The position numbers and the translations under genes were made by a program. A stretch of 64,000 bases of DNA from Patescibacteria group bacterium (GTDB lineage: Bacteria > Patescibacteriota > Microgenomatia > UBA1400 > PJMF01): assembly GCA_049322655.1 (NCBI GenBank), contig JBMORP010000006.1:448410-512409 (forward strand), given 5' to 3'. The notes under the pieces are model-generated. The model had not been told where the DNA came from. It saw only the letters and a program-made list of their open reading frames with translations, and ran no database searches. This document shows positions 2,643-64,000 of this stretch, in pieces; positions within the stretch are counted from its first letter, which is position 1, and the number at the start of each line of letters is the position of its first letter.

Positions 2643-2719
2643 TTAACCAGTATATCGACTAGAAACCTCAAAAAAAAGCCCCGCAGTAAGCAGGGCTTTC
2701 TGGGTTGTCTATTTAGAGT

Positions 2720-5008
2720 TTAACGGAAGCCATCTCTTGATCTAAAACCACCTCTTCTATCTCCACCTCGGTTGTCTCTAGAAAATCTACGACCACCATT
2801 GCCACGATCATTTCGCCTGCCACCTCTGTCTCCACCACCATTACCGTTTTTCTTTTTCTCAGCTGATTGCTCAGCGGTCAACATCGATAGACCAATCTTG
2901 CCGTCTTCTTTGATTTCAGAGATTCTGACATGGGCCTGATCGCCAACCTTGGCCACCAAAGTCACATCTTCGATTCTGTCAGCTGACATTTCTGAAACGT
3001 GAACCAAACCTTCTCTACCTGGAAGATATTCGACAAAAACTCCATAGTTTTCTACTCTGGTAATTTCACCATCAAACTCATCCCCAACCTCAACTACTCT
3101 CACCAAACCAGTGACCTTGGACACCGCTGCTTCGATTTTAGCTTGATCAGATGAAGAAATGTTAACAATGCCGATTTCTTTATCTTTATCTTCATCGACA
3201 TTAACTTCAGCTCCAGTTTCTTCAATAATAGACTTAATCATTTTTCCTCCTGGACCGATCAGTTCACCAATTTTATCAGCTGGAATCTCGATTTGAACCA
3301 CCTTAGGTGCGTATTGAGAAAGACTGGTTCTTGGAGTATCAATTACTTTCATCATTTCAGCCAAGATATGCAATCTACCTTCTTTAGCTTGAGCAAGGGC
3401 TTCTTCCAAAATTTGTCTAGAAACTCCTTTAAGTTTGATGTCCATTTGAATAGCTGTAATACCTTGTTCAGAACCAGCTACTTTGAAATCCATGTCACCA
3501 ACATGATCTTCTAAGCCCTGGATGTCAGATAGCACCACATACTTTTCCCCATCACTCATCAACCCCATGGCAATACCAGAAACTGGACGTTTAATAGGCA
3601 CTCCAGCAGACATTAGAGATAAAGTGGAACCACAAACAGAAGCCTGTGAGGTTGAACCGTTAGAACTCATGATTTCAGAAACCACATGAATCGTATAAGG
3701 GAACTCTGCTTGACTTGGAATCATAGGCAATAAAGCTCTTTCAGCCAAAGCTCCATGACCAATCTCACGACGCTTTGGAAAACCAAATCTACCGACTTCT
3801 CCAGAGGCATAAGGAGGCATATTGTAATGGTGAATGTAATGTCTAGTTTCTTCACCATCGATACTCTCGATTAACTGGCCCAAAGTTGGATCAGCCAAAG
3901 TGGTTACGGTTAAAGCCTGAGTAGCTCCTCGTTTGAACATGGCAGAACCATGAGTTCTGGCAAACAAATCCACTTCACACCAAATTGGTCTAATTTCAGT
4001 GGTTTTACGACCGTCTGGACGAACACCTTCATCCAAGATCATTTTACGAGCCTCTTTTTTGGTCAGTAAATGTAAGGCCTCACTGATTTGTTTTTCAGTC
4101 ACCTGAGCTGCTTCGTCTTCAACTCCAGCATTAAGTTTCTCAAAAATAGCTACTTTTACTTCTGCTTCATTAGTGGGTAATAAGCGACCACTAGTCTCGA
4201 CAATCTCTCTAATTTCTTTAGCAAAGCTCTCATAGATCTTGGCTGCCAACTCTTCAACAGCGAAGGTCTTAGCTCGATCTTCTTCAGAAACTAATTCTAA
4301 TTTATCTTTACCAACTTCAGCGGTAATTTCTTCAATCACCTGACAAACTTCGCCCAATTTTTCCTGAGCTAACACCATTCCTTCGATGACCACAGCTTCA
4401 GAGACTTCATTAGCTCCAGCTTCAACCATCACAATAGTTTTGGCATTACCAGAAACAATTAAATCCAGATCACTAGTCTCTTGTTCTGTTTGAGTTGGAT
4501 TAATCAAAAACTCATTGGTTTCTTTTCTATAACCTACTCTCAAACCAGCCAAAGGACCGTCAAAAGGAATTTCTGAAATAGATAAACCAATCGCACTGCC
4601 AAGTAAACCCAACATGTCTGGATCGTTTTCTTCGTCATAAGAAAGCACCGTGTTAATCACCTGAACCTCATTAGTAATCCCATCTGGGAACATTGGTCTT
4701 AAAGAACGATCAATCACTCTTGCTTTTAAAATCACATCATCTGCAGGACGACCATCTCTCTTGATCCATCTAGAACCTTTAATCGTTCCAGCTGCATAAA
4801 GCTTTTCCGCAAACTCAACAGAGAGTGGAAAATAACCAAGATCAACTTTTCTACCCAAAGCTACGGTGGAATGAACCACTGTTTCACCACAGGTAACTAA
4901 AACAGCAGCGCTAACTTGTTCAGAAAACTTACCGATTTCGACTGTTACTTCTTTGCCTCCTAAAGTGAAGGTCTTTTTATATGTATCTGGATATTTTGGA
5001 TAACCCAT
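2720..5008 (-). CDS. pnp: Polynucleotide phosphorylase (PNPase) with C-terminal Arg/Gly-rich tail
   Basis: Two RNase PH domains (FKRGATQALTVTTLA, GDMDFKVAG), KH (GPGGKMIKSI) and S1 domains; 762 aa. C-terminal ~45 aa are RGG/RG repeats. Confidence 0.95.
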   Translation of the reverse strand: MGYPKYPDTYKKTFTLGGKEVTVEIGKFSEQVSAAVLVTCGETVVHSTVALGRKVDLGYFPLSVEFAEKLYAAGTIKGSRWIKRDGRPADDVILKARVIDRSLRPMFPDGITNEVQVINTVLSYDEENDPDMLGLLGSAIGLSISEIPFDGPLAGLRVGYRKETNEFLINPTQTEQETSDLDLIVSGNAKTIVMVEAGANEVSEAVVIEGMVLAQEKLGEVCQVIEEITAEVGKDKLELVSEEDRAKTFAVEELAAKIYESFAKEIREIVETSGRLLPTNEAEVKVAIFEKLNAGVEDEAAQVTEKQISEALHLLTKKEARKMILDEGVRPDGRKTTEIRPIWCEVDLFARTHGSAMFKRGATQALTVTTLADPTLGQLIESIDGEETRHYIHHYNMPPYASGEVGRFGFPKRREIGHGALAERALLPMIPSQAEFPYTIHVVSEIMSSNGSTSQASVCGSTLSLMSAGVPIKRPVSGIAMGLMSDGEKYVVLSDIQGLEDHVGDMDFKVAGSEQGITAIQMDIKLKGVSRQILEEALAQAKEGRLHILAEMMKVIDTPRTSLSQYAPKVVQIEIPADKIGELIGPGGKMIKSIIEETGAEVNVDEDKDKEIGIVNISSSDQAKIEAAVSKVTGLVRVVEVGDEFDGEITRVENYGVFVEYLPGREGLVHVSEMSADRIEDVTLVAKVGDQAHVRISEIKEDGKIGLSMLTAEQSAEKKKNGNGGGDRGGRRNDRGNGGRRFSRDNRGGDRRGGFRSRDGFR

Positions 5009-5232
5009 TTTGTTCTTTCTGTTAGTTCACCAAACCGACACGATCAAGGTATTCCTTGCGTGTTAATTCAGCTCGAGTGAGAGCTAACCTATTCATAAAT
5101 ACTAAGGGAATGCTTTTGCATCTGATAATAATTCCTCAATAAGCAGGGAGTACCTGTGGTTCAACCACTCCTTGCCAATCGAGGAAACTACACTCCCGAT
5201 GAAAGATATTATACAGGAAAAACAACAAAAAA
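5009..5232 (-). promoter_or_regulatory. Structured pnp 5' leader with its own -10-like element (TATAAT) downstream of the rpsO terminator
   Basis: On the minus strand: TGTATAATATC, then a long stem GGGAGT...ACTCCC enclosing the GTGGTTGAACCAC hairpin, ~200 nt before the pnp ATG. Confidence 0.35.
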
Positions 5233-5262
5233 GCCCCCAAGTTAATGAGGGCTTTTATTTGC
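5228..5262 (-). terminator. Rho-independent terminator after rpsO
   Basis: Minus strand AAGCCCTCATTAACTTGGGGGCTTTTTTG: GC stem followed by T-run. Confidence 0.45.
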
Positions 5263-5274
5263 AAAATAAATTAC

Positions 5275-5544
5275 TTATTTACTCAAGCCTAGTTTTTCAA
5301 TCAACTTAGCATAGCGCTCTTCACTTCTACCTTGCAAGAAACTAAGTAAACGACGTCTTTTGGAGACTTGTTTTAACAAACCTCTTCTGGAGTGATTATC
5401 TTTTTTGTGTTTCTTCAAGTGATCGGTGAGTTCTTGAATAGAAGCGGTCAATAAAGCGACCTGAACTTCTGGAGAACCAGTATCACCCTCGAAGAGTTGA
5501 AAATCTTTAACAAGTTGAGTTTTTTGGACTTTTGATAGTGCCAT
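5275..5544 (-). CDS. rpsO: Ribosomal protein S15
   Basis: 89 aa; [15 protein letters not shown]...[39 protein letters not shown] typical S15. Confidence 0.95.
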
Positions 5545-5647
5545 GGTATTTATTTCCTTCCCTTATAAAGCGAGCCTGAGCCTGCTTAATAAAGTAACCC
5601 TTATACTAGAGAGTGGATTATATCACACTCGATCTTTTTTATTGAGT

Positions 5648-7114
5648 TTACTCCTCATCTTCTTTTTTATAGGCAATAATCACATCGCCTACTTGGAAAT
5701 CTAATTTTTTATTTTTAAAAGTGAGACCACCTTCGTTTTTAGTTTTGATAACCAAAATATCGTCTTTACCATGTTTCATATTAGCAATCACTGGGTTGGC
5801 CACAATTTGATCATTTCGTTTGAGGTGAAGAAGGTCTGGCTTTTTGATTTCACCAGTTTTCACTCTCACGCCAGCAATTTTGTCACCCTTCATCTCAAAA
5901 ATCTGCACAATCTCTGCTTCACCAGTGATTACTTCATCAATCGTTGGTTCCAAAATCTTAAGCATTTGTTTTTGCAAATCTTCGATCAAGTGATAAATAA
6001 TTCCATATTCTTTAACCTTAACACCTAGTGTTTTGGCAAAATTTTTAGTCGCTCTTGGCACTTTCATCCCAAAGGCAATCACTAAAGCCTTACTAGTCTG
6101 AGCTAGTTCAAGTTCCTGTTCAGTTACAGGTCCGACTCCAGCCAAGATTAAATTAACACTATCTGGATCAATGTTCTGTTCAATAGCCTCAAGAGTCCCT
6201 TTGACATCTGCTTTCACAATCAGATTCATTTTGATCTTATCGCCAAAGACCCCATCAATATCAAAACCTGCCCATTCATCAACTTCACTAACAGCAACCT
6301 GTTCCACCACCGCTGGTTGATATTCTCGGCCAAGCTCTTTAACAATTGAACCCACTTCTGGGACATCTTTCAAGCCAATAATCTCTGCTGGATAACCAGG
6401 CTTGACTTCGGTTAGTTGTTGACCGGTTTCATCAGTTAATAATTTAACTCTACCTTGAATAGTGTCATCAATAAAAATATCTTGTCTGGTTGCTAAAGTA
6501 CCTTGTTGAACAATCACACTAACCAAAGGGCCTTTACGAGGATCTTTGGAAGACTCAATCACTACTGCTTCTAAAGGTAGCTCTGGGTCAGCCTTTAATT
6601 CCTGAAGTTCAGCCATTAAAGAAATAGTTTCTAACAATTTGTCTACTCCTTGACCAGTTTTAGCTGAAACCTCAGCCACTTCGATATCGCCACCAAAATC
6701 CTGAACAATAACTTCATGCTCCGCTAATTGAGCTTTAACATTATCTGTTCTGATATCTTGAATATCAATTTTATTGATTGCGATCAAAAAAGGAACATTT
6801 GCTTCTTTTATGTAACGAATTGATTCTATTGTTTGTGGTTTGACACCATCATTAGCAGCTACTACAAGCACCACGATATCAGTAATCTGAGCTCCGCGTT
6901 GTCTCATTTTGTTAAAGGCAGCATGACCAGGAGTATCAATAAAAGTAAGCTGTTTGCCTTGATGTTGAATACTATAAGCACCAATATGTTGAGTAATGCC
7001 TCCTTGCTCTCTGGCTTGAACATTAGTTTTACGAATGTAATCCAACAAACTCGTCTTGCCATGGTCAACATGACCCAAGATTGTAACAATTGGTGGACGA
7101 GCTATTAATGCCAT
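5648..7114 (-). CDS. infB: Translation initiation factor IF-2 (short form lacking N-terminal domains)
   Basis: G-domain GHVDHGKTSLLD, DTPGH, NKID; C-terminal beta-barrel domains; 488 aa. Confidence 0.9.
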   Translation of the reverse strand: MALIARPPIVTILGHVDHGKTSLLDYIRKTNVQAREQGGITQHIGAYSIQHQGKQLTFIDTPGHAAFNKMRQRGAQITDIVVLVVAANDGVKPQTIESIRYIKEANVPFLIAINKIDIQDIRTDNVKAQLAEHEVIVQDFGGDIEVAEVSAKTGQGVDKLLETISLMAELQELKADPELPLEAVVIESSKDPRKGPLVSVIVQQGTLATRQDIFIDDTIQGRVKLLTDETGQQLTEVKPGYPAEIIGLKDVPEVGSIVKELGREYQPAVVEQVAVSEVDEWAGFDIDGVFGDKIKMNLIVKADVKGTLEAIEQNIDPDSVNLILAGVGPVTEQELELAQTSKALVIAFGMKVPRATKNFAKTLGVKVKEYGIIYHLIEDLQKQMLKILEPTIDEVITGEAEIVQIFEMKGDKIAGVRVKTGEIKKPDLLHLKRNDQIVANPVIANMKHGKDDILVIKTKNEGGLTFKNKKLDFQVGDVIIAYKKEDEE

Positions 7115-7128
7115 AGACTAGGATTCCT

Positions 7129-8421
7129 TTATTCAGTAACTTCTTCTTTAAACTCAGCAGCTAAAGTAGCTTTTTCTACTTCTCTCTCTGCTTGAGCTTT
7201 TTTATCTGCTACCACTTTCTTTCTGAGAATTTCTTTTTGTTCATCGGCCAAATCTTCCATAGCCAACCATTTTTCCTCAAAACGAATCAAATCATTAAGG
7301 GTAGTGAGCTTGTGTTCAATCAAAATAGCTCTGGTTTCTTCAGTTAAACCAACAAAAGTATCGATTTCGTACTCTTCTTTACCAGTAGCTTGAGATTGAA
7401 CTTTACCAGTAGCTGACTTAATGGTGATTTTATAGCCCGTTAACTTGGCAGCCAAACGAACATTTTGCCCACCACGACCAATCGCCAAAGATAGTTGGTC
7501 ATCTGGAGCAGTTACAGTCACTAACTGTTTATCCTGATCAACTTCAATCAATAAATTCTCAGCAGGAGCCAAGGCACCCTTGAGGTATAAAACAGGGTCT
7601 TCAAAGAAAGGAATAATATCGATTTTTTCGTTATTTAGTTCTTCAATGACTTTTTGAACACGAACACCACGTTGACCAACACAAGAACCAACTGGATCAA
7701 CGCCTTCTTGAGTGGATCTAACTGACAACTTGGTTCTTACCCCAGCTTCACGAGCCAAAGAAACTATCTCAACAGCTCCAGAAGAAACCTCTGGTACTTC
7801 ACGATCGAATAGTTTGGCCACCAAGTCTTTATCAGCTCTGGAAACAACCACTACTTGACCACGATTAGTCTCACGGATATCTTTAATTAATACCGCCAGA
7901 CGAGAGTTGAGTCGATAGAACTCACCTCGCATTTGTTCTTCTGGTGGCATCCAACCATGACCTCTACCCAAATCCATAATCACATTTCTGCGATCCATTC
8001 TGAGCACCTGACCAGTCATGATTTGACCAACTTTATCTTCAAATTCAGAGATAATCTGATCTTTTTCTGATCGACGAATTTTTTGCAAAATAACTTGCTT
8101 GGCTGTTTGAGCCGCAATTCTGCCAAAACCAGCGGGAGTCACATCTTCTGATTTCTTTTCATCCCACTCGGTTGGTTCTAAAGTCTCTTCATCTCTAGCC
8201 AAAACCGGAGCTTTTAAGATCCGAGCTTCGCCAGTGTCTTCGTTAAGATCTACATAATAATGGAATTCTTCATCCAAAAAACCCATTTGTTTGCGATAAG
8301 CAGATACTAAAGCTTGACGAATTGCTTCATAAATAGAAGCAGGATCGATTTTTCTTTCAGAGGCAATTTGCGCAATAGCAGCCGCGAACTCAGTTCTAGC
8401 TACAGTAGAAATGTTTGGCAT
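7129..8421 (-). CDS. nusA: Transcription termination/antitermination factor NusA
   Basis: N-terminal NusA domain, S1 and two KH domains; 15-nt spacing to infB start (operon). Confidence 0.9.
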   Translation of the reverse strand: MPNISTVARTEFAAAIAQIASERKIDPASIYEAIRQALVSAYRKQMGFLDEEFHYYVDLNEDTGEARILKAPVLARDEETLEPTEWDEKKSEDVTPAGFGRIAAQTAKQVILQKIRRSEKDQIISEFEDKVGQIMTGQVLRMDRRNVIMDLGRGHGWMPPEEQMRGEFYRLNSRLAVLIKDIRETNRGQVVVVSRADKDLVAKLFDREVPEVSSGAVEIVSLAREAGVRTKLSVRSTQEGVDPVGSCVGQRGVRVQKVIEELNNEKIDIIPFFEDPVLYLKGALAPAENLLIEVDQDKQLVTVTAPDDQLSLAIGRGGQNVRLAAKLTGYKITIKSATGKVQSQATGKEEYEIDTFVGLTEETRAILIEHKLTTLNDLIRFEEKWLAMEDLADEQKEILRKKVVADKKAQAEREVEKATLAAEFKEEVTE

Positions 8422-8577
8422 TTTCTTCCTTTTTTATTTTTTATTTCAAATTATTTAATTTTGGCTCTAATATGAAAAAAGACGCGACCAAAAGTGAGTC
8501 CGTCTCTATCAGTATTTCGCCAGAGGCTATTATAACATAAGTCTAGAAAATATTAAAAACCTCAGAGCTAGTCAAAA

Positions 8578-9432
8578 TTAAAGACCTGCTTTCTCTAGCT
8601 CTTTGAAAAGTCTCTTTTGTTCTCTGGAGAGTTTCTCTGGAATCTCGACCACAATCTTGACATAAAGGTCACCATTACCCCTAGATCTAAGTCTAGGTAC
8701 ACCCTCATCTCTCAATCTAATAAGACTATTTGATTGAGTTCCTGGTCTAATCTTCATCTTAAGATGATCTTCCCTCAAGGTAGGAATCTCAATGGTGCCA
8801 CCCAAAACGGCTGTAGAAATCGAGATTTTTTCAGTTAAGAAAACATCATAACCATCTCTTTTGAATCGTTCATGAGGTCTTACCTCGATAGTCACATCAA
8901 AGTTTTCAAAACGAATCCGAGTACCATCATTGGCCCCAGCGGGAATCTTTACTTTTTGTTTTTTACCCTCGATCTCAACCTCTTTAGTCACTCCATGGAC
9001 AGCTTCCATAAACTCAATGGTAAGACCATATCTGGGACGACGCGCGGCCCGACCAAAACCACCACCAAAAAATGACTCAAAAATCTCAAATGGATCATTA
9101 AAATCAAAGTCAGGAGCACCGCCACCAGAAGTCTGATAAGTCCAAGTAAATGGTCCCTGTTGAAAACCGCCAAACGGATTACCACCACCAAAGCCTCCTG
9201 AGGCAGGATCAAACGCAGCATGACCAAATTGATCATAAGCTTGGCGTTTCTTGTCATCAGACAAAATTTGATAAGCTTCATTGATTTCTTTAAACTTGGC
9301 CTCGGCGTCTTTTTCCTTGTTCTTATCTGGATGGTATTTGAGCGCCATCTTCCTATAAGCAGCCTTAATCTCTGGCTGGGAAGCAGTTTTAGTAACTCCT
9401 AAAATCTCGTAATAATCACGTTTGGTTGACAT
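8578..9432 (-). CDS. DnaJ-class co-chaperone lacking the zinc-finger domain (type II/CbpA-like); probable ATG at 9432 (ORF track extends to TTG at 9453)
   Basis: J-domain with HPD (YYEILGV...KYHPDKN), G/F-rich linker (GGFGGGNPFGGF), C-terminal substrate-binding domains; no CxxCxGxG repeats. Confidence 0.8.
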   Translation of the reverse strand: MSTKRDYYEILGVTKTASQPEIKAAYRKMALKYHPDKNKEKDAEAKFKEINEAYQILSDDKKRQAYDQFGHAAFDPASGGFGGGNPFGGFQQGPFTWTYQTSGGGAPDFDFNDPFEIFESFFGGGFGRAARRPRYGLTIEFMEAVHGVTKEVEIEGKKQKVKIPAGANDGTRIRFENFDVTIEVRPHERFKRDGYDVFLTEKISISTAVLGGTIEIPTLREDHLKMKIRPGTQSNSLIRLRDEGVPRLRSRGNGDLYVKIVVEIPEKLSREQKRLFKELEKAGL

Positions 9433-9469
9433 AGAATGTAGTGATTGTAACAAGGAATTTTGAAAAAAT

Positions 9470-9518
9470 TAAGCAGAGAAAATGGTAGAGTGCTAAAGAT
9501 TCAAACTGCAAGTTTGAA
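9470..9518. promoter_or_regulatory. Upstream region of the dnaJ-class gene: perfect CIRCE right half GAGTGCTAA with degenerate left half, plus adjacent 8-bp-arm palindrome TTCAAACTGCAAGTTTGAA
   Basis: GAGTGCTAA at 9488-9496; palindrome at 9500-9518; located 40-90 nt upstream of the ATG at 9432 on the minus strand. Confidence 0.3.
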
Positions 9519-9787
9519 ATAAAAAAATAATCCTATAATATTGACATATTGGATGTATTCTGCTATAATAATCTTCTTCTTTGTGAAGCTACGCCAAAAT
9601 TAGCTTTTGGTAATTAATTTCATAAAGATGTTCTTTAACATCTGAAAGATTATTTGCTTACAAAAAAAAAGACGGGTCTGCCGTTTTCCTCATCAAATTT
9701 GGTGAAGAAGACGGCAGTACCTGTCTTCTTGGACATACAACTGTCCTCGGCAAGGGCTGACTATCAAAATTCATGGAGAAATTCCAA

Positions 9788-11026
9788 ATGAAGAAGAACG
9801 TCCTCTTTGCTATGGCAGTCATGATGATTGCCCCAACGGTGTTGCTTGCTGCCTGCAGTGGCTCAACACCTGAAGATATGTCCCTTGGTACAGCAAGCGG
9901 CGACTACGTTGCCCCAATGCTCCAAACAGTTCGTGTTGGCGGCACAGTTGCTGATGGCATCACCCTCGCTGTGGTTGCCGTGATTGTCGCTCTGATTGCT
10001 TCAGTGGCGGTATTCTTCGCTGTCAGATACTTCCGCGACCAGAACATGGTTAAAGGCGGTGGTATTGCAATGCCGATTTTCCTATCAGTGATGACTTTTG
10101 TGGTGGTGGCTGGGCTGATTTTCGGTCCTGGTTACTTCCGTAATTCTTATGTCGTCATTGACCAAGGCTCGGTGGGTGTGCAACTCAACCAGGGTAAAGC
10201 CGTTGGTACGCTCAACCCCGGTCCCCACTTTATTATTGGCTACCGAGACCAAGTGGTCATCTTCACTACCAGAGAATTCACTTTCTCTACCAACAGTAGC
10301 CCCCATGAACACGGTTCAGAACACTATCGAACCTGGGATATGGATGTCAATACTGCTGATGGTGTTGATGGTGATATTCCCTTCCAGCTCAGGCTGAAAG
10401 TCAACGCTTCTGATGCAATGGCTCTCTACGAAGAGTATGGCACGCTGGAAAATGCCATCGTTGGCGTAATCAAGACGCCAGCTCTCGAAGAAGCCCGCAA
10501 CGTTACCCGGAATAAAACGGCAGAACAGTTGATGACCAACATCGACGCCTACAATTCTACCGTCCAAGACCTGATTACGGCGGAAGCCGATGGCTTCATC
10601 ACCGTGATTTCTTTCGGTTTTCGCCAGCCAGACATGGGCGAATGGCAGGCTGAACGCAGTAAGGCTCAAACCGCACTGCAAACTGCCATCTACGAAGAGA
10701 ACCAAGAACAGGTCGTTCAACACCAGGAAAACCAACGCGTAATCAAAGCCCAAGCCACAGCCGACATCGCAATCATCAACTCGCAACAGGCAGCCGATTC
10801 AGCCGTTATCGCGGCAGAAGGGCAAGCTGAAGCAGACAAGATTGCGGCTGATGCAAAAGCCTACGTTATCCTGACAGAAGCGGCAGCGGAAGCCGAAGCT
10901 AACACCCTGGTCAGTGCCAGCTTGACGCCGGCGCTGATTGAATACATCAAGTGGGGTACAAAGTGGAATGGCGATGTTCCATCCACTGTCCTCGATGATG
11001 GAACAGGCGTGTTCATCACCCCATAA
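9788..11026 (+). CDS. SPFH/band-7 (HflK/C-, prohibitin-like) protein with N-terminal lipoprotein signal and Ala/Glu-rich C-terminal coiled coil; strongly GC-rich foreign gene
   Basis: Lipobox LLAAC; TM helices; SPFH core YVVIDQGSVGVQLNQGKAVGTLNPGPHFI; RBS GGAG 10 nt upstream of ATG 9788 (ORF track starts at 9773). GC and GC3 markedly higher than neighbours. Internal start at 10046 (MVKGGG) also possible. Confidence 0.7.
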   Translation: MKKNVLFAMAVMMIAPTVLLAACSGSTPEDMSLGTASGDYVAPMLQTVRVGGTVADGITLAVVAVIVALIASVAVFFAVRYFRDQNMVKGGGIAMPIFLSVMTFVVVAGLIFGPGYFRNSYVVIDQGSVGVQLNQGKAVGTLNPGPHFIIGYRDQVVIFTTREFTFSTNSSPHEHGSEHYRTWDMDVNTADGVDGDIPFQLRLKVNASDAMALYEEYGTLENAIVGVIKTPALEEARNVTRNKTAEQLMTNIDAYNSTVQDLITAEADGFITVISFGFRQPDMGEWQAERSKAQTALQTAIYEENQEQVVQHQENQRVIKAQATADIAIINSQQAADSAVIAAEGQAEADKIAADAKAYVILTEAAAEAEANTLVSASLTPALIEYIKWGTKWNGDVPSTVLDDGTGVFITP

Positions 11027-11045
11027 GCGAACCAATCTTCAGATG

Positions 11046-11074
11046 GTGGACCGGCGAAAGCCGGTCCACTTTCA
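11046..11074 (+). terminator. GC-rich rho-independent terminator (GTGGACCGGC-GAAA-GCCGGTCCAC + T-run)
   Basis: Perfect 10-bp stem, GNRA-like loop, TTT tail immediately after the SPFH gene stop. Confidence 0.7.
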
Positions 11075-11106
11075 AGAGTTTTTAATTTATTTTGAAAACT
11101 GTTGAG

Positions 11107-11129
11107 AGATTAAAATACCCACCTAACAG
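11107..11129. terminator. Bidirectional hairpin ACCCAC-ctaaca-GTGGGT flanked by A-run and T-run
   Basis: Seen directly; A5 upstream, T6 downstream. Confidence 0.45.
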
Positions 11130-11144
11130 TGGGTTTTTTAGTAC

Positions 11145-11405
11145 CTAATTTGCTAATTCATCTCCTTTAAAAAAGATATCTACTTCATGATCTACGGTGG
11201 TAAAAGCATTCTCGTGGTCTGTTGCACTACTCATAGCTACTCTGGTTGTTACTACATTTTTTGCTGTAGCCTCATACAAAACTTGATTGCACGCCCAACA
11301 CCACACCACCATTTCATGACTAGCTAGGGCTTGCCGAACCTCCTCAGGAACTAGTTGCTCCCAAGTTATTGGTTGACTGATTTCCTCTGTTGCTGCCATA
11401 ACCAA
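11145..11405 (-). CDS. Hypothetical small protein (86 aa), overlaps the 3' end of the yfhO-like gene by 40 nt
   Basis: ORF only; no recognisable motif except a single CWAC; weak support. Confidence 0.25.
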   Translation of the reverse strand: MVMAATEEISQPITWEQLVPEEVRQALASHEMVVWCWACNQVLYEATAKNVVTTRVAMSSATDHENAFTTVDHEVDIFFKGDELAN

Positions 11406-13762
11406 CCTCCCAATCCCAACAAAGTTAAACTACTAATTATTAAACTGACAACAAACAACCTGGGATAGTAAACAAAGCTAATCTGTTCAGCTCCATCACT
11501 CAAGCTAACTCTTCTCATCTGATTAAAATTTTCTATTGGTTGTTCTTGGCCATTTACAAATACTCGCCAGTCTTGATCATAGCGATCGGCCATAATCAAA
11601 TACTGGTGGTCTTGGCTGTTAATGTGCAAATCAATCCTACTGGGATTTTCTGCTTTGATTACAATCCCGTCACTACTGCCATCTTCAAATCTAAACCTAG
11701 ATAAAGCAGTTGGTCTTGCTAAAACTTGCCACCTTGCTTCACTTTTGATCTCTCCAGCTCCTCCTACTAACTCAACTTTACCTACCCCACCAACTCGTTC
11801 AAAGGCACTTAAATCCTCTTCTACTTTGAACCAACTATCTACCAAGTAATATTTCACTGCCCATTCATCCAACAACCGATTGCTGGGCTCAATTTCATCT
11901 ACAAAATTAATTCTTGGGCTAGCAGAAGTTTGCCATAAGTGTGCAAAGTCTTGTGGCAACAAAGTCGTGTAACCATGAATAGTAGAGACCCCAAACACCA
12001 TGTTCCAATTGGGCGTCATGCCATCACGTAAATTCTGAACATGCTTAAACTCTTTCAATTCTTGGTCATCCACAAAAGAATCAGAAAATGGTTTGCGCAC
12101 CACCATCGCTTCCCAATAAGAACCATAATCGGTGTAAGGAGTATTAACATTACGAGTTAAAATTCGGTAGTTAGTTTTAGTTTCTTCCAGTCCCAATTGC
12201 GCCATTAATTGATCGGAGTTGGCTGTAACAGAGTCGTAGATTTTATTGGGTGCAAAATAAAACATTCCTTGAGTGTTAACTAAAATCTCTAATATTAAAA
12301 TCGTGATAACAATTCGGTTTTTTTTCTGGTAAAAAAAGTACAATGATGCAATAAAGAAAATACTGTTAAATAAAATGTTTTTTGCTATTTCGAGTAAAAT
12401 AATTTTATCTCGCTCTAGGGTATGAAAGGGGCTACTAGAAAGCGAAGAAGAAGCGAACTTATCAATGATCTTCCAAGCCGATTCAAACCCGTACTGCCAC
12501 ACTCCCAAACCAACTAATCCAACCACCAGTCCTCCCACTCCCAAACTTAAAAATAAACGATATTGTTGAGTTGTCATTTGCCAGCTCTTTAATGCTTTCA
12601 CTGTCCACAAAATCACCACAACATTGGTCATAATCATTACCATGCTGGGATAACGAGCCACTCTAAATAATGGAAAAATCTGTTGAAAAAAATTAAATCC
12701 TGGTAAGTACTCACCTAGTGAAAAGATTAATGTCACTACGATAAAAATACTAAATAAAATCATTTCGCGATCAAGTTTTTTTAACCAAGTTTTCGATTTG
12801 CTAAATAGACTTTGAATAAAAGTTATCCCAATTGCTAACCAGCCCAACCACGTCACATAAATTCCCACATTAGGTTGGCCATTCCAAGCTGGCCCCCACT
12901 TCATACCCACAGCCGGATTATCAAAAAAGTAAGGTAAGAAAAACTTGATCAACATCGCTGGGTTTAATGAGCCAACTAAAGCTTGCTCTGCTGTTTGCTC
13001 CATCCTGGTGGAGTTTACTAACATCTGGACAAACGGCAACCAGGCGGCTGCAGAAACTAATAACACCAAACCAGCAGTAATACTCCATGCCTTTAGCCAC
13101 TTTATCAAGTTGAGTTTTTTAGCTTGGAAAGATATGAAAGCAGATAATAAAACAGCCAAACCAATGCCATATAAAACATGTTGAGGATAACCACCCCAGA
13201 ATTGTAAGGCCACAATCACACTAAACCAAACTCTGCTCTTTGGTGCTTTAACTAACTGCAACCCCAAATATGACAACCAGGGCAACCAAACAATTGACTG
13301 CAACGTAGAAAAATTATTCATACTGCCACTTACCTGGGTTGAGAACATCCACAGCCCGCCAGCCAAAATTGCCCACCAATGATCTTTGAACCAAAGCTTG
13401 GCTAGTAGATACATGCCACTATAAGCAATTAATGCGTGAGAAATTAACAGTAAATTCAAAGCAACAGCTGGAGAAAAAATTAAAAACAACAACGTACTGG
13501 GATAAAGTACCGATTGATTGATATCTGCCACCCACGGCATCCCAGCAAAAACATACGGGTTCCAGAGTGGTAAAACTCCTTGTTTGAGCCACTCTGCCGT
13601 AAAGATTTTGCCTGGCATCATTAGTGAATAATTGTCGCCAAAAACTAAAGTTTTTCCGAATAAAAAGGGTAAAAATCTGAGAACAATAAATATAAGAAAG
13701 ACCAACCAAAATTGAGATTTTTCTTTTCGAAAATATTTCTGACAACTAGCAAGTAAATTCAT
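11366..13762 (-). CDS. YfhO-family polytopic membrane protein (GT-C-like glycosyltransferase)
   Basis: 798 aa, >10 N-terminal TM helices, large extracytoplasmic C-terminal domain and terminal TM. Adjacent to a CsbB-like GT2, as in the csbB-yfhO arrangement. Confidence 0.55.
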   Translation of the reverse strand: MNLLASCQKYFRKEKSQFWLVFLIFIVLRFLPFLFGKTLVFGDNYSLMMPGKIFTAEWLKQGVLPLWNPYVFAGMPWVADINQSVLYPSTLLFLIFSPAVALNLLLISHALIAYSGMYLLAKLWFKDHWWAILAGGLWMFSTQVSGSMNNFSTLQSIVWLPWLSYLGLQLVKAPKSRVWFSVIVALQFWGGYPQHVLYGIGLAVLLSAFISFQAKKLNLIKWLKAWSITAGLVLLVSAAAWLPFVQMLVNSTRMEQTAEQALVGSLNPAMLIKFFLPYFFDNPAVGMKWGPAWNGQPNVGIYVTWLGWLAIGITFIQSLFSKSKTWLKKLDREMILFSIFIVVTLIFSLGEYLPGFNFFQQIFPLFRVARYPSMVMIMTNVVVILWTVKALKSWQMTTQQYRLFLSLGVGGLVVGLVGLGVWQYGFESAWKIIDKFASSSLSSSPFHTLERDKIILLEIAKNILFNSIFFIASLYFFYQKKNRIVITILILEILVNTQGMFYFAPNKIYDSVTANSDQLMAQLGLEETKTNYRILTRNVNTPYTDYGSYWEAMVVRKPFSDSFVDDQELKEFKHVQNLRDGMTPNWNMVFGVSTIHGYTTLLPQDFAHLWQTSASPRINFVDEIEPSNRLLDEWAVKYYLVDSWFKVEEDLSAFERVGGVGKVELVGGAGEIKSEARWQVLARPTALSRFRFEDGSSDGIVIKAENPSRIDLHINSQDHQYLIMADRYDQDWRVFVNGQEQPIENFNQMRRVSLSDGAEQISFVYYPRLFVVSLIISSLTLLGLGGWLWQQQRKSVNQ

Positions 13763-13777
13763 AATTTTAATTTCTGT

Positions 13778-14473
13778 TTACGGCAAAATCCGCAAACCAA
13801 AAATCACCCGCAAAGCATCAATCCCATCACGCCACGAAATTTTCTTACCTTCAGAAAAATCACGACCGACATAGGTAATCGGTACTTCAAAAATCTTCAC
13901 TCCTCTTTTTAGGAGTTTGCAGGTAATTTCTGGCTCCATATCGAATTTATTGGATTGAATATCTAACTCACGAAAAAGTTTTGTTGGTAAAACTTTATAA
14001 CAAGTCTCCATATCAGTGAGTGTAGTATCGTACAAAATATTAACCAAAAAATTCAGCAAACTATTACCCAACCGATGCCAAAACAACAAATTAGAGTGTG
14101 GCCCAATAAAGCGTGAGCCATAAACTACATCTACTCTTCCTTTGATAATATGTTCTATTAAAGCTGGAATATCACTTGGGTCATACTCCAAATCTGCATC
14201 TTGAATAAGGGTGTAATCACCAGTGACTTTCTTTAAACCAAAACGAATAGCTGAACCCTTGCCACCATTTGTCTTTTTAAGGTAAGAAATCTTCTTTACC
14301 CCTTTTTTCTTTGACTGTAAAAATTTATTGATTTCTTTGTCAGTGTTATCAGAACTACCATCATTAACCACAATTACTTCTTTAACTACTGGCACCACGA
14401 TTAATCTTTTCAAGATCTCTGCTACCGTTGCTTGCTCGTTATAAACTGGGACAATTACCGAAAGTTTCATCAC
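13778..14473 (-). CDS. GT2 polyprenol-phosphate sugar synthase (CsbB/GtrB/DPM1-like)
   Basis: SVIVPVYNE...VVNDGSSDNT...DADLEYDP (DxD) ...GSRF; 231 aa. Confidence 0.7.
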   Translation of the reverse strand: MMKLSVIVPVYNEQATVAEILKRLIVVPVVKEVIVVNDGSSDNTDKEINKFLQSKKKGVKKISYLKKTNGGKGSAIRFGLKKVTGDYTLIQDADLEYDPSDIPALIEHIIKGRVDVVYGSRFIGPHSNLLFWHRLGNSLLNFLVNILYDTTLTDMETCYKVLPTKLFRELDIQSNKFDMEPEITCKLLKRGVKIFEVPITYVGRDFSEGKKISWRDGIDALRVIFGLRILP

Positions 14474-14525
14474 CTGAGCATAGCAAGTTTTTTAAAAATT
14501 GGGGAGATGATTTATTTCTAAAATA

Positions 14526-14556
14526 AAAAAGGCCCCGCTTTCGCGAGGCCATCCAT
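14526..14556 (-). terminator. Rho-independent terminator after dnaK
   Basis: Minus strand GGCCTCGC-GAAA-GCGGGGCC-TTTTTT. Confidence 0.6.
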
Positions 14557-14577
14557 GTTCTGCAAACTTAAAGTTTG

Positions 14578-16503
14578 TTATTCCTCAACTACTTCACCTT
14601 CCTCAGCATCTTTCTTATCACCAGCTTTTTCTGCTTTTTTATTGCCCTTTTCATCTTTGCCAGCCTCTTTATTAGCTTCAGCCGCTTGTGCCTTTTGCAT
14701 CGCTTCGCCTAATTTCTGAGCTGAAGTCAAAGTTTCTTCCGTGGCTTTATCCAAAGCTTCTTTGGTAACATCATCTTTTTCTGCCATCTCTTTGAGTTTT
14801 TTAACATTCTCTTCGATGACTTCTTTATCTTTCTTATCCAACTTATCACCATAATCTTTGAGCTGTTTCTCCATTTCAAAAGCAACACTAGTGGCCTTAT
14901 TTTTGGTTTCAATCAACTCTTTCTTCTTTTTATCTTCTTCAGCGTGTTTCTCAGCATCAGCCTTCATTTTTTCAACTTCATCATCAGATAAATTAGTGCT
15001 GTTCTGAATAGTGATCTTTTGCTCTTTGCCAGAAGTTTTATCTTTAGCAGAAACATTCAAGATGCCACTTGAGTCAATATCAAAAGTGACTTCAACTTGA
15101 GGCACTCCTCTAGGTGCTGGAGGAATTCCATCCAAAACAAATCGACCCAAACTTTTGTTATCAGCAGCCATTTCTCTTTCACCCTGCAAGACATTGATCT
15201 CAACTTGGGTTTGATTATCAGCTGCCGTAGAGAAAACCTGTGATTTACTGGTGGGAATAGTGGTATTTCTTTCAATCAAAGGAGTTCGAATCCCACCCAG
15301 AGTCTCAAGACCCAGGGTTAGCGGGGTAACATCAAGTAATACCACATCAGAAACATCCCCACCAATTACTCCGGCTTGAATAGCAGCCCCAATGGCTACT
15401 ACTTCATCTGGATTTACCCCCTTATGTGGATCTTTACCAAAGAATTTCTTCACTTCCTCCTGAATCCTAGGCATTCTAGTTTGCCCACCAACCAAAATCA
15501 CATCACCAATATCCTTGGCTTCAAGCTTGGCGTCTCTTAAGGCTTTTTTAACCGGCTCAAAAGATTTTTTAACCAAGTCATCAACTAATTCTTCCAGTTT
15601 TGATCTAGTTAAAGTCATAGTTAAATGAAGAGGTTGACCAGCATCACCTTGTGCAATAAAAGGTTGGTTTATTTCTGTTTGTTGGGCAGAAGACAGTTCA
15701 ATTTTAGCTTTTTCGGCACTGTCTTTAATGCGTTGCATCGCTTGAGGATCTTTGGCTAAATCTTTACCATGTTCTTTCTTAAACTCAGCCAAAACATACT
15801 CGATAATAGCATTATCAAAGTCATCACCACCCAAGAAAGTATCACCATTGGTTGATTTGACTTCAAAAACACCATCACCAATCTCCAAAATCGAGATATC
15901 AAAAGTACCACCACCCAAATCATAAACTGCGATGGTCTTACTGCCTTTTTTGTCCAAACCATAAGCTAAAGCCGCTGCGGTTGGCTCATTAACAATCCGT
16001 TCTACCTTCAAACCAGCAATCTCACCAGCTTGTTTGGTAGCTTGGCGTTGAGAATCATCAAAGTAGGCTGGCACAGTAATCACCGCTCTAGTCACAGTTT
16101 CACCTAAATAACTTTCAGCATCAGCCTTAGCTTTAGCCAATACTTTAGCAGAGATTTCTTGAGGAGTTAAAGTTTTACCACTCACCTTAACCACCGCCAT
16201 TCCATCTTTACCATCAGTCACTTCGTAAGCAATATGTTTCAAAGCATTTTTCACTTCTTTATCACCAGCTTTACGACCCATGAAACGTTTCACTGAATGA
16301 ACTGTCGAAGTTGGGTTCATTACCATTTGTCGCTTAGCCGCGTCACCGACAATTACTTCATCACCTTTGAAAGCAATAATTGAAGGAAAAGTATTTCTTC
16401 CTTCTGCGGTTGCGATAATTTTGGGGGAGCCACCTTCCATCACTGCCACTGCAGAGTTGGTGGTTCCAAGATCAATACCAATGATTTTTCCAGAGTCTGC
16501 CAT
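14578..16503 (-). CDS. dnaK: Molecular chaperone DnaK (Hsp70)
   Basis: [18 protein letters not shown], full Hsp70 architecture with acidic/Lys-rich tail; 641 aa. Confidence 0.97.
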
Positions 16504-16569
16504 ATTTCCTCCTTATGTTTATTTTTTTGCAAATATTTACTAATTAATAATTGTTATTTGTACTATATT

Positions 16570-16596
16570 TTAGCAAACAAGTCAAATGACTGCTAG
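16570..16596. promoter_or_regulatory. CIRCE-like inverted repeat TTAGCAAAC-N9-GACTGCTAG between grpE and dnaK
   Basis: 6-bp arms TTAGCA/TGCTAA-type with 15-nt spacer; same architecture as sites upstream of hrcA and groES. Confidence 0.45.
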
Positions 16597-16622
16597 CATA
16601 AGTTTGATATTGGTGCTGAGAG

Positions 16623-17075
16623 TTATGCCAAGGTTACTTTAGCGTGCTGAATCACTACTCCGTTAAGTTTGTAACCTTTGCGCACCACTTCAATCACTTT
16701 ATTGCCTTGACCTTTTTTTTCAACTGCCTCCATTAAATTAACATCAAAATCTTTTCCCATCACTTCAATTTCTTCCAAGCCAGCATTGACTAAAACTTTC
16801 TTTAACTGGTCTAAAACCATATTCAAACCTGGATCGTTAAGTTGAGCAGCTGCCATTTCCAAATGTTCTAAAGGTTGAATTAGATCTTCCATTAATGATT
16901 GATTTGCTAATTTAATACCTTTCAACCGTTCTTCTTGAGTACGTCTCAATAAATTCTGATAATCAGCCAAAGATCTTTTTTCTTTTTCTGAAGCAACCTT
17001 AAGCTGTTCTTCCAAAGCAAGAAGCTTAACTTCAAGTTTCTTATCTTGGTTGGTTGGTGATGTTGTTTTTTTCAT
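16623..17075 (-). CDS. grpE: Nucleotide exchange factor GrpE
   Basis: Coiled-coil N-terminus plus C-terminal beta domain (RRTQEE...LMEDLIQPLE); 150 aa; between hrcA and dnaK. Confidence 0.9.
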   Translation of the reverse strand: MKKTTSPTNQDKKLEVKLLALEEQLKVASEKEKRSLADYQNLLRRTQEERLKGIKLANQSLMEDLIQPLEHLEMAAAQLNDPGLNMVLDQLKKVLVNAGLEEIEVMGKDFDVNLMEAVEKKGQGNKVIEVVRKGYKLNGVVIQHAKVTLA

Positions 17076-17160
17076 AATTTCAAAGTAAAAGAAAAATGCC
17101 CCAGCCCCTAATGGGGTTACCTCATACTAACCTGACACTTTTCGTAACAAATTTGTTAAT

Positions 17161-17886
17161 TTACCCTGCTATTTCTTCAATTAACCCTTTAAAGTACTTT
17201 AACATTGGAATGACATATGGATAGTCAAAACGGTGAGAACCAAGCACCCCTAGTTTGCAAGGTCTACCTGCAGCATTGACATTAGTGTAAATAACACTAA
17301 TTGGTTCTAAGTTTTTATTTCCCAACTCTTTGCCATAGACCAAGTGAACTAGGTTTTCACTTTGACCAAGACCAAAAACTTCCTTAATCATATCAACTTC
17401 TTCAATTAGGTTAAGCACATTCCTAGTCACTCTAATGTCAAAAAACTCTGGCATATTAAGTAAGTTGGCATAACCAGAGTGGTAAATTCGATGATCAGTA
17501 TCAGACATAGCCAAACCAACCGCTCCAGATTTATCAGCCAATAACTTCGCTGCCTCATAAAGTAAAGCATCTGTTTCTTGGCGATGTTTCCAGATCTTTT
17601 CTTTGGCGCTGACTTCATCAGCGACTGATAACTCTTTTTCTTTCATTAATTCATTAACATAAAGACGTAAAGCCAGAGGAGTAGGAATTCTGCCAGCAGA
17701 AATATGTGATTTTCTAAGATAACCCTGTTTAGTCAAGTAAACCATTTCATTACGAATCGTAGCTGGAGAAACACCAATATTGTATTTTTTATCAATCGTC
17801 TCAGAACCAACTGGCTTAGCAGTTTCGATAAATTCCTCGATAATAGCCCGTAAAATTTGTATCTGGCGCGCGACGAGATCGATCAT
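17161..17886 (-). CDS. hrcA: Heat-inducible transcription repressor HrcA (short, 241 aa)
   Basis: N-terminal wHTH: ILRAIIEEFIETAKPVGSETI...ISPATIRNEM; first gene of hrcA-grpE-dnaK. Confidence 0.85.
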   Translation of the reverse strand: MIDLVARQIQILRAIIEEFIETAKPVGSETIDKKYNIGVSPATIRNEMVYLTKQGYLRKSHISAGRIPTPLALRLYVNELMKEKELSVADEVSAKEKIWKHRQETDALLYEAAKLLADKSGAVGLAMSDTDHRIYHSGYANLLNMPEFFDIRVTRNVLNLIEEVDMIKEVFGLGQSENLVHLVYGKELGNKNLEPISVIYTNVNAAGRPCKLGVLGSHRFDYPYVIPMLKYFKGLIEEIAG

Positions 17887-17889
17887 ATA

Positions 17890-17916
17890 TTAGCAATAAT
17901 AAGGGCTGAGTGCTAG
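17890..17916. promoter_or_regulatory. CIRCE-like operator TTAGCAATA-N9-GAGTGCTAG immediately upstream of the hrcA start
   Basis: Right half matches CIRCE consensus GAGTGCTAA 8/9; abuts the hrcA ATG (3 nt). Confidence 0.55.
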
Positions 17917-31678: not shown

Positions 31679-31697
31679 AATTTTAAAACAATGTTTT

Positions 31698-33845: not shown

Positions 33846-34490
33846 TTATTCCTGAGGCACTGGCTTTTCTAACGTATCTTTTAAAGGCTGAGTTGGTTCT
33901 TTTTCCAAAACGGTTTGTTCTTTACCACTTGAAGAAATCATTTTTACCTCTGAAAGCAAGAAGCCTTCACAGTTTAAGCCTCTATCTTGGAAGTGTTTAT
34001 TAAGGTCATCTCTGATAATTGCCTCTATTTGTGATCGATTGTTTTTAATTTCATTCAAAGTATATTCACTCACCAATGAAGAGATTCTACTTCTAGAAAA
34101 CGGTCTCACTACCTTGGACACAACATTTTCACCAATGTTTTCCCAAATTTCTGGGGCATTACCTCGATCAATTCTAAACAACACCGACCCTTCAACCGAG
34201 ATATCTCGTCCATCTTTGGTCGAAGTCAAGATTGGAGTATCACCTAAGGCTTCCTTATTAGCTGATAAATCAAAATTTTTGTCAATTGAATATTCCAAAA
34301 CCTGGGCATTAAATAACTTAGCTACTTGCCAAAAAGGAATTTTAAGATGTAAACCAGGACCCCAAACTTTGGGTAAGACTCCACGACCGCGATCATACAC
34401 ACAGGCGACTTGTCCTGGTGGCACAGAAATAAAAAAGCCACCTACTACTTCATCTACTAAAAAAGAAACAACTAGTCTATCGAATTCCAT
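33846..34490 (-). CDS. SPFH/band-7 (prohibitin/HflC-like) domain protein
   Basis: N-terminal TM; ISVPPGQVACVYDRGRGV...GLHLKIPFWQV SPFH core; 214 aa. Confidence 0.65.
   Translation of the reverse strand: MEFDRLVVSFLVDEVVGGFFISVPPGQVACVYDRGRGVLPKVWGPGLHLKIPFWQVAKLFNAQVLEYSIDKNFDLSANKEALGDTPILTSTKDGRDISVEGSVLFRIDRGNAPEIWENIGENVVSKVVRPFSRSRISSLVSEYTLNEIKNNRSQIEAIIRDDLNKHFQDRGLNCEGFLLSEVKMISSSGKEQTVLEKEPTQPLKDTLEKPVPQE

Positions 34491-63259: not shown

Positions 63260-64000
<741 letters not shown>

Follow-up and report, generated by a model that had tools for sequence, protein, structure and literature searches.

A rare, probably exchanged lipoprotein-SPFH module with a candidate leader RNA in a mosaic envelope island of Patescibacteria

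The window analyzed here, a stretch of 64,000 nucleotides from contig JBMORP010000006.1 of a Patescibacteria group bacterium (assembly GCA_049322655.1), carries next to dnaJ a single gene for a predicted membrane protein with an SPFH (band-7) domain, together with a promoter, a structured leader, and 3′ hairpins of its own. We consider it probable that this unit, at 9541-11110 on the forward strand, is a self-contained, horizontally exchanged expression module of the Patescibacteria (candidate phyla radiation, CPR) whose coding sequence (CDS) has been replaced as a unit and whose SPFH product is exported.

Architecture of the unit

The unit would comprise a strong σ70 promoter, a structured leader of ~211 nt, a GC-rich CDS, and a 3′ end with tandem hairpins. 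The promoter (TTGACA-17-TGcTATAAT; 9541..9569, on the + strand like the rest of the unit) matches the consensus at 12 of 12 positions and has an extended −10 element, and transcription would start at about 9576. It is kept in L001, L002, L004, and L095 (L numbers denote the loci compared here), and promoters read from the sequences of L013 (TTGACC-17-TATAAT) and L014 (TTGACT-17-TATACT) lie at the equivalent relative position. The leader (9577..9787; ΔG −79.4, z −8.2 versus shuffled controls) contains a 5′ hairpin (9578-9628), the box TTAACATCTGAAAG (9635-9648), a long bulged RNA hairpin (9666..9730), the box GGGCTGACTATCAAAA (9754-9769), and a Shine-Dalgarno GGAG (9775-9778), which lies 9 nt upstream of the ATG at 9788 and is invariant across the compared loci. 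The long hairpin itself (9669-9728; ~25 bp, ΔG −39.3 kcal/mol, z −9.0) is built from a 9-bp lower stem, one 3′ bulge, an 11-bp middle stem, and a variable apex. Over 9668-9787, 1 of 120 positions differs between the window and L001, against a background divergence of about 10%, and the boxes, the long hairpin, and the Shine-Dalgarno sequence are kept in L013, L014, L098, and L099.

RNAalifold assigns 25 pairs to the long hairpin, 16 of them with compensatory double changes; in a fixed-structure test 93.6% of the cells are paired (30-50% in slid-partner controls), and the 16 covarying pairs compare with 8.0 ± 1.7 in shuffles, 0 of 500 of which match the observed values. A covariance model of the hairpin (R1) scores 56-74 bits on the sense strand versus 20-42 on the antisense strand and finds exactly one match per locus, always just upstream of an SPFH gene of the CPR clade, with none elsewhere in 375 kb and none upstream of the SPFH genes of a high-GC sister clade. 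Because G·U pairs are conserved and the sense strand scores higher, we take the hairpin to act as a sense RNA. An Rfam 15 scan of the leader and the 3′ untranslated region (UTR) returned no family at gathering score, only sub-threshold hairpins of the miRNA-precursor type, and the leader hairpin is thus a candidate new cis-regulatory RNA absent from Rfam. With low confidence, we suggest that it most likely controls mRNA stability or processing, the latter perhaps of the RNase III type; binding of a protein would be another, equally speculative, role. Three other identities were rejected: a minus-strand terminator (the hairpin plus U9 in the window), since the A-run is absent from L013 and L099 and the G·U pairs and model scores favor the sense strand; a short peptide encoded in the leader and terminating at the TTAACAGCTGA box, since its frame lacks a start codon in L099 and the box is missing from L013; and a generic REP-like repeat, given the single match per locus in 375 kb.

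The CDS (9788..11026; allele A) encodes a protein of 412 residues in which a signal peptide with lipobox Cys23 (9788-9856) is followed by a conserved external motif (9857-9958), a first transmembrane helix (TM1, ~9959-10033), a basic loop, a second helix (TM2, ~10073-10147), an SPFH domain (10154-10726), coiled-coil helices (~10640-10921), and a C-terminal W..W.G.LP motif. Pfam Band_7 (PF01145) matches residues 123-313 with 78.5 bits (cut-off 23.6; E 8.4e-22). The lipoprotein signal MKKNVLFAMAVMMIAPTVLLAAC has a basic n-region, a hydrophobic h-region, and the lipobox LAAC, with the pattern [LVI][ASTVI][GAS]C; Cys23 is aligned and invariant in 25/25 family members, and the strict pattern holds in 23 of them. 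All 25 share the same plan: a lipobox signal peptide, an acidic or neutral segment with a GTASGDYVxPxLxT-like motif, TM1, a short basic loop, TM2, the SPFH domain, Ala/Glu-rich helices, and W..W.G.LP. The start at 9788 stands because the GGAG 9 nt upstream is invariant and the N terminus is conserved family-wide; a start at 9773 was rejected, as it overlaps that GGAG and no gene record exists with either product. The family is rare, with 7 close homologs among 5.8 billion clustered proteins, about 20 full-length clusters among 1.84 billion 50%-identity representatives, and one locus (L014, from Candidatus Pacebacteria UBA6180) among 185,579 species-representative genomes. Searching the 5.8 billion proteins with a profile of the family added a single member, within the limits of a saturated word prefilter.

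A profile search against PDB sequences places prohibitin-1/2 (5e-13), HflC (4e-9), erlin-2, and HflK closest. The AlphaFold2 model has a mean pLDDT of 66 (73-87 for the TM hairpin and the SPFH core, 70-87 for the SPFH core), and its best Foldseek matches are the erlin1/2, prohibitin, and HflK/C cages; a probability of 1.00 is given to erlin, prohibitin, HflK/C, stomatin, QmcA, and flotillin. The best-matching branches (erlin, prohibitin, HflK/C) are those whose SPFH domains face away from the cytosol, and the same orientation is predicted here by the positive-inside rule, with acidic residues in the external segment and basic ones in the loop that joins the two TM helices. In our model, the exported protein would be lipid-modified on the outside at Cys23, cross the membrane twice, and present the SPFH domain, together with the coiled coil, at the outer side, where it would oligomerize into a prohibitin/erlin/HflK-C-like cage that organizes a membrane microdomain, possibly around FtsH. 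An FtsH gene lies at 20515-22461, 9.5 kb away and unlinked to the SPFH gene, and a partnership between the two is speculative. The protein probably works like these cages and is not a member of their families: an NCBIfam scan at E up to 1 found no HflK or HflC model, the gene is always single (between dnaJ and orf86 here, unpaired in every other context), and there is no NfeD partner next to 9788-11026, both neighbors lying on the opposite strand.

Downstream of the stop codon lies a GC-rich hairpin, GTGGACCGGC-GAAA-GCCGGTCCAC (11046..11069), with a perfect 10-bp stem and a GAAA loop (ΔG −25.7 kcal/mol, z −6.2). It is the sole perfect hairpin of at least 9 bp with a stem GC of at least 0.7 in the 64 kb, where native hairpins are of the A-run/short GC core/T-run type, and is probably an intrinsic terminator; perfect GC-rich hairpins occupy the same position in L013, L014, and L099, with stem sequences that all differ, followed by UUUUC. 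A second, AU-rich hairpin including a U-tract (CUUUCAAGAGUUUUUAAU...UUGAAAACUGUUGAGAG, 11068..11108) follows, with 19 consensus pairs by RNAalifold across the window, L013, L014, and L099, 6 of them compensatory, and the transcript would end at about 11070-11110. Beyond it stands a bidirectional terminator of native type (ACCCAC...GTGGGT + T6, 11117..11134), shared with the convergent orf86-YfhO operon and kept in L001 and L095. This is the only hairpin that a consensus terminator scan calls here; the scan passes over 11046-11069 because of its poor U-tail. Between the window and L001, the 3′ UTR is 97-99% identical.

A preliminary description of this DNA had read the protein correctly as a lipobox, two TM helices, an SPFH domain (Band_7 E 8e-22), and an Ala/Glu-rich coiled coil, and had rightly singled out the perfect GC-rich hairpin, a probable terminator with a weak U-tail, as unlike the local A/T-rich hairpins. 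Its internal start at 10046 (MVKGGG) must be abandoned, for the Met is present in 2/25 members, the lipobox Cys in 25/25, and no Shine-Dalgarno sequence precedes it, whereas the N terminus is conserved. The limits that it drew, 9655-11080, leave out the consensus promoter at 9541, with which the unit begins. As for the alternative hairpins that it saw in the leader, the inverted repeats are real but nest as the lower and middle parts of one bulged hairpin; an attenuator was rejected as well, no consistent U-run following the hairpin in other loci.

A derived insert in the heat-shock operon

The NusA encoded in the window is identical to MFZ5438174.1, a protein annotated as that of a Patescibacteria group bacterium. 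The surroundings were compared with 80 loci fetched with the neighboring DnaJ, the relatives coming largely from groundwater and sediment metagenomes. In every relative with a visible junction, dnaK is followed directly by dnaJ, with gaps of about 175-850 nt (L016, L039, L060, L022, L034, L035, L025, L028, and others); the closest informative ones are L039 (DnaK 81%, DnaJ 66%) and L016 (DnaK 84%, DnaJ 63%), in which hrcA-grpE-dnaK-dnaJ is contiguous. The contig of L015, the closest relative by DnaJ (76%), stops 83 nt upstream of dnaJ, so that its junction is not visible. SPFH, YfhO, and orf86 genes are absent near DnaJ in 80/80 loci. In the window, about 5.1 kb separates dnaJ (8578..9432, −) from hrcA-grpE-dnaK (14578-17886; dnaK 14578-16503). 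Because relatives keep dnaK next to dnaJ, the derived state is a larger, envelope-related insert of which the SPFH unit is the deviant part; the module and a GT2-YfhO-orf86 envelope-glycosylation operon would together fill it and split the otherwise conserved hrcA-grpE-dnaK-dnaJ operon.

Apart from the module, the insert (11145..14473) comprises GT2 (13778-14473, −; Pfam GT2), a YfhO-like GT-C transferase gene (11366-13762, −), and orf86 (11145-11405, −), which overlaps the YfhO end by 40 nt. All three lie on the operon strand, opposite to the SPFH gene, and have near-native composition. PF09586 (YfhO) is recorded for orthologs of the YfhO-like protein, while the window's own protein gave no Pfam match at E up to 0.01; orf86 matched neither Pfam nor PADLOC. 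A phage or defense origin finds no trace either, with no relative on IMG/VR contigs and no PADLOC match.

The split raises the question of how dnaJ is regulated. Upstream of dnaJ (9468-9498) there is a CIRCE half-site with a perfect right arm, GAGTGCTAA, and a degenerate left arm, TAAGCAGAG (4 mismatches to the consensus), which is kept in L001, L002, and L004; full CIRCE-like operators stand upstream of hrcA (17890-17916) and upstream of the groES/groEL region (33788-33814). Since dnaJ has been severed from its operon, it may have gained or kept partial HrcA control. The neighborhood of dnaJ holds another variable spot: L015, the closest relative by DnaJ beyond the species complex (DnaJ 76%, NusA 80%), has an insertion of about 4.5 kb (957-5444) that separates dnaJ from nusA, whereas the two genes adjoin in the window.

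Exchange of the coding sequence and rival explanations

The site is shared by two very different proteins. The window and L001 carry allele A, and L095, L096 (GCA_964433225.1), and L097 carry P0021 (allele B), which is 38% identical to the window protein in amino acid sequence; the distance between A and B is as great as that of any pair in the CPR clade. Alignment of the window with L095 by blastn gives 96.5% identity over 4799-9798, 84.5% over 11030-16010, and nothing between. Identity runs across promoter and leader as far as ‘ATGAA’; from codon 3 onward no homology is left until the stop, ‘TAAGC’, where the match resumes at 100% and continues over both 3′ hairpins. The UTRs of the L001 and L095 haplotypes are 100% identical. 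Because divergence in situ cannot yield a break from start to stop between matching flanks, the CDS appears to have been exchanged, and because three independent samples (SRR6488458, GCA_964433225.1, and SRR5011273) give the same junctions, chimeric assembly of the L095-type contigs is unlikely.

The flanks are mosaic as well. Across PNPase-IF2-NusA the window equals L095 (99-100%, dS 0.01-0.04), both being about 92% identical to L001; at ~8600-9798 (dnaJ, promoter, and leader) L095 turns L001-like, reaching 100% in the leader. In the SPFH CDS the window and L001 share allele A against allele B of L095, with saturated divergence. The 3′ UTR and orf86 are alike in all three haplotypes, and YfhO, GT2, and dnaK differ among all three (dS 0.5-0.96), so that the three-way breakpoints fall at ~8600, the CDS edges, and ~11420. 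The most likely route of the CDS swap would be homologous recombination through the conserved UTRs and flanks in a mosaic, recombining population.

YfhO deserves mention in its own right: among the three haplotypes it shows 79-84% amino acid identity, dS 0.79-0.96, and dN/dS 0.11-0.13, with 200-nt windows down to 66% nucleotide identity, whereas orf86 is far better conserved (dS 0.02-0.17). Only two ORFs (open reading frames) in the window exceed its GC content at third codon positions (GC3), 0.372. Such hypervariability suggests that surface glycans are being diversified beside the SPFH locus, and phage or host contact might, speculatively, drive diversifying selection on the whole surface island, including YfhO and GT2.

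Homology that ends exactly at the start and stop codons, identical UTRs in L001 and L095, and mosaic flanks are also what an ancient balanced dimorphism would leave behind, with A and B coexisting for long, in the manner of idiomorphs, and their flanks homogenized up to the CDS edges without any recent import; predicted surface exposure and a hypervariable YfhO would fit frequency-dependent selection. We nevertheless regard this as somewhat unlikely. The 38% identity of the two proteins is as deep as the whole CPR clade and lies far beyond the flanking genes (maximum dS about 1), and because the A/B divergence so far exceeds that of any flanking gene, at least one allele must originally have come from outside. 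Moreover, only two alleles have been seen so far.

Beyond this site, the unit recurs, so that it is known from at least five unrelated genomic contexts. L013, L014, L098, and L099 have homologous promoters, leaders, hairpins, boxes, Shine-Dalgarno sequences, and 3′ hairpins around proteins 38-47% identical. The common 5′ order is a near-consensus promoter, the 5′ hairpin, the TTAACAGCTGAAGA box, the long bulged hairpin, the GCUGACUA..AAA box, GGAG, and ATG; the common 3′ order is the stop, TTCAGA, a GC-rich hairpin of unrelated sequence, UUUUCA.AAG.UUUUAAU, and the second, AU-rich hairpin. The GC content of the CDS hardly follows that of its surroundings: it is 0.514 in the window (surroundings 0.37), 0.519 in L001 (0.38), 0.531 in L095 (0.38), 0.488 in L013 (0.46), 0.541 in L014 (0.37), 0.522 in L098 (0.41), and 0.509 in L099 (0.43). 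The CPR-clade members of what would be a small gene pool thus seem to keep their UTRs, as well as a GC of about 0.5 in the CDS, in any host genome. Because deeply diverged copies in low-GC genomes are equally GC-rich, GC-richness is a trait of the module and gives no date of arrival; long residence in AT-rich hosts, as 40-45% protein identity implies, should ameliorate composition, which points to continuing horizontal flux in a common gene pool or to some force that maintains GC, for example biased gene conversion at a hot spot of recombination.

Two neighborhoods of these homologs add side observations. The copy in L014 (3394-9063) adjoins HsdM-like and HsdR-like type I restriction-modification and Mrr-like ORFs, as judged by eye from the translations, which suggests that it sits in a defense or variable island. 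In the high-GC sister clade (L008, L010, and L011), a PMT/PMT_2 GT-C glycosyltransferase gene lies about 640 nt downstream of the SPFH homolog, and the window has its YfhO-like GT-C beside SPFH; the association may be recurrent, or a coincidence.

One may go further and picture the UTRs, one arm with promoter and leader and the other with the terminator, as a portable “socket” that accompanies the family among Patescibacteria. Homologous recombination would swap very divergent alleles of a surface SPFH protein into it, one CDS for another, for antigenic or phage-receptor variation at the population level, with GC held at ~0.5 in any host by continual exchange and with the leader hairpin as a new, module-specific class of cis-regulatory RNA. 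We offer this extension of the module reading tentatively and would not be surprised to see it fail.

Composition had first drawn attention to the gene. Mean GC in the window is 37.4%, and 500-nt windows at 10001-11000 climb to 0.50-0.53; at 80-nt resolution the GC-rich stretch extends from ~9669 to ~11070. The gene has a GC of 0.593, 0.407, and 0.543 at the three codon positions, and its GC3 makes it the top outlier of 51 non-overlapping long ORFs in the window (mean 0.293, standard deviation 0.054), at about +4.7 standard deviations. The idea that it is a native gene whose composition reflects amino acid content or expression-linked codon bias is hardly credible: although a protein rich in Ala, Gly, and Val raises GC at positions 1 and 2, it is GC3 that deviates most, codon bias is no explanation because the highly expressed neighbors DnaK, GroEL, PNPase, and IF2 have a GC3 of 0.27-0.33, and the gene is absent in relatives and belongs to an extremely rare family. 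A second SPFH gene (33846..34490; Band_7 E 3e-23) has native composition (GC3 0.284); with an upstream ORF of 124 aa, it may be of the stomatin-NfeD type.

Two further features of the compositional landscape lie elsewhere. The second-strongest GC3 outlier of the window is an ORF at 30976-31503 (−; GC 0.473, GC3 0.455), between the GroEL terminator hairpin (31650-31679) and a tRNA gene (30760-30833); its product, which has a Pro/Thr-rich linker and no Pfam match, is a predicted lipoprotein (MKSHKFVLLVLGVMVFFVAAC|SPTPE...) and may be another imported surface lipoprotein. A rise in GC at 63001-64000 is explained by rRNA genes, namely 5S and the 3′ part of 23S (63029-64000, −).

A GC-rich gene in an AT-rich genome, absent from this site in relatives and with sister-clade homologs whose composition matches their own 0.58-0.65 GC genomes, invites a simpler account: a one-off, recent horizontal transfer of a 1.4-kb cassette from a high-GC donor to a place between dnaJ and yfhO, not yet ameliorated. 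Yet five contigs of other samples (L001-L005) encode a 93%-identical protein, P0001, at this very site. Across 20 kb, L001 matches the window with about 90% identity, and its SPFH gene, at 90-96%, is no more diverged than housekeeping genes; dS is 0.22, below the flanking genes (0.35-0.79), and dN/dS is 0.147 versus 0.02-0.04 for housekeeping genes. The gene has a GC3 of 0.556 in L001 (0.38 for the rest of the locus), close to the 0.543 of the window. Because sister lineages about 10% diverged share the site with normal divergence, a very recent, strain-specific acquisition is excluded. Four further contexts of low or middling GC hold copies, 38-47% identical, that are no less GC-rich and have the same UTRs, and a second, unrelated allele fills the same place. 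In the high-GC clade (L006 and L008-L010) gene GC is 0.58-0.61, matching the hosts; having no leader hairpin, that clade is ruled out as the direct donor. We judge a single recent transfer to be improbable.

Less probable by far is a site-specific mobile cassette whose 5′ and 3′ hairpins are recombination sites (attC-like, or MITE/REP-like ends). A long imperfect 5′ hairpin with a conserved bulge, a 3′ hairpin, and recurrence of the module in unrelated contexts would suit it. The hairpins, however, lie outside the segment exchanged between A and B; G·U pairs and the strand asymmetry of the covariance model indicate a sense RNA rather than single-stranded DNA of either strand; and each locus has one copy of the hairpin, with no further match in 375 kb. 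Nor are there direct repeats or a target-site duplication, a GTTRRRY-type core, or a viral-contig match, though recombinases were not sought systematically.

The exchanged module has weaknesses of its own. The source of allele B was not found, with no close relative among 5.8 billion proteins; the continued flux that would hold CDS GC stable at ~0.5 in AT-rich hosts across deep divergence is our extrapolation; and covariation in the hairpin is seen in few sequences, about 5 independent UTR copies having been retrieved. The AlphaFold model, built from an 8-sequence alignment, is only moderate, and topology, lipidation, oligomerization, and the link to FtsH are predictions. After the GC-rich hairpin there are just 3-4 U (UUUC), which leaves the efficiency of termination uncertain. 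The classical marks of a genomic island are also missing: the module and the 5.1-kb insert have no tRNA (the nearest are at 29221 and 30760), flanking direct repeat, target-site duplication, or mobility gene such as a border integrase, no systematic search for recombinases having been made.

The core of the preliminary description, a foreign GC-rich SPFH cassette with its own leader and probable terminator, survives these tests: relatives lack the gene, and high-GC homologs match their hosts. Its contrast in GC and GC3 with the flanks is borne out by the windowed GC and the ORF survey (0.543 versus 0.293 ± 0.054), as is the second, non-GC-rich SPFH gene. Where it envisaged a lone 1.4-kb insertion between dnaJ and yfhO-csbB, the whole ~5.1-kb block is derived. 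Its comparison with sister genomes gives a divided answer, as the gene occupies the same locus in L001-L005 and is absent from this site in wider relatives, and, of the donors that it proposed to look for, the high-GC clade is not the direct one; no source of allele B was found.

Comparison with known systems

SPFH scaffolds and their lateral transfer are already well known; the lipobox-SPFH subfamily, the exact CDS exchange within a conserved unit, and the covarying leader hairpin are not described in the literature searched. From the subfamily one would expect a cage that faces outward on three anchors in the ultra-small CPR bacteria, whose envelopes are poorly understood, and an exchange from start to stop between near-identical strains offers a testable example of surface-component variation in episymbiotic Patescibacteria. 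More generally, the module is a caution against taking anomalous GC as a measure of how recently a gene was transferred.

Among SPFH proteins, the prohibitin-1/2 and erlin-1/2 cages (PDB 8rrh, 9o9z, 9vvj, and 9o9u) give the best matches in sequence (E 5e-13, profile positions 221-330) and in fold (E 6e-11) and likewise combine an N-terminal anchor and a non-cytosolic SPFH domain with ring or cage oligomers, such as are predicted for the window protein. In contrast to it, they are eukaryotic and organellar, lack a lipobox and a second TM helix, and are only 13-18% identical. HflK/HflC (PDB 7vhp, 7wi3, and 9cz2) share the SPFH domain, long coiled-coil helices, and a C-terminal cap motif, as well as a TM helix right before the SPFH domain that makes the domain extracytoplasmic, as predicted here (Foldseek E 1e-9 to 1e-8, sequence E 4e-9); an FtsH gene is also present in the window. 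Unlike them, the window gene is single, with no hflK-hflC pair and no NCBIfam HflK/HflC match, and unlinked to hflX or ftsH, and its product adds a lipoprotein signal, a conserved external peptide, and an extra TM helix. A survey of prokaryotic SPFH proteins (SPFH1-12; Hinderhofer et al. 2009, PMC2636767) documents frequent lateral transfer and patchy distribution, and its text uses neither “lipoprotein” nor “signal peptide”. The window protein resembles the members of these groups as a membrane-anchored SPFH protein of patchy distribution, but stomatin-type proteins (SPFH1) pair with NfeD, whereas the gene at 9788-11026 has no NfeD neighbor.

The exchange itself has parallels outside the superfamily. 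Integron cassettes with attC sites are likewise single-gene units found in varied contexts, with an imperfect hairpin and an extrahelical base; here, by contrast, the hairpin is at the 5′ side, in the mRNA leader, downstream of its own promoter and outside the exchanged segment, has G·U pairs expected of RNA, and comes with no R′/R″ core sites, integrase, or array, although recombinases were not systematically sought. Closer in form are loci of allelic replacement, such as the pneumococcal cps locus between dexB and aliA and the mating-type idiomorphs of fungi, in which divergent sequences occupy one site between conserved flanks, with sharp edges and mosaic surroundings. They differ in that the segment replaced here is a single CDS, from start to stop, and the arms are the gene's own UTRs, which travel with the family. 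Set beside these systems, the object is better described as a rare, probably exchanged lipoprotein-SPFH module with a candidate new conserved leader RNA, lodged in a recombination-mosaic envelope island.

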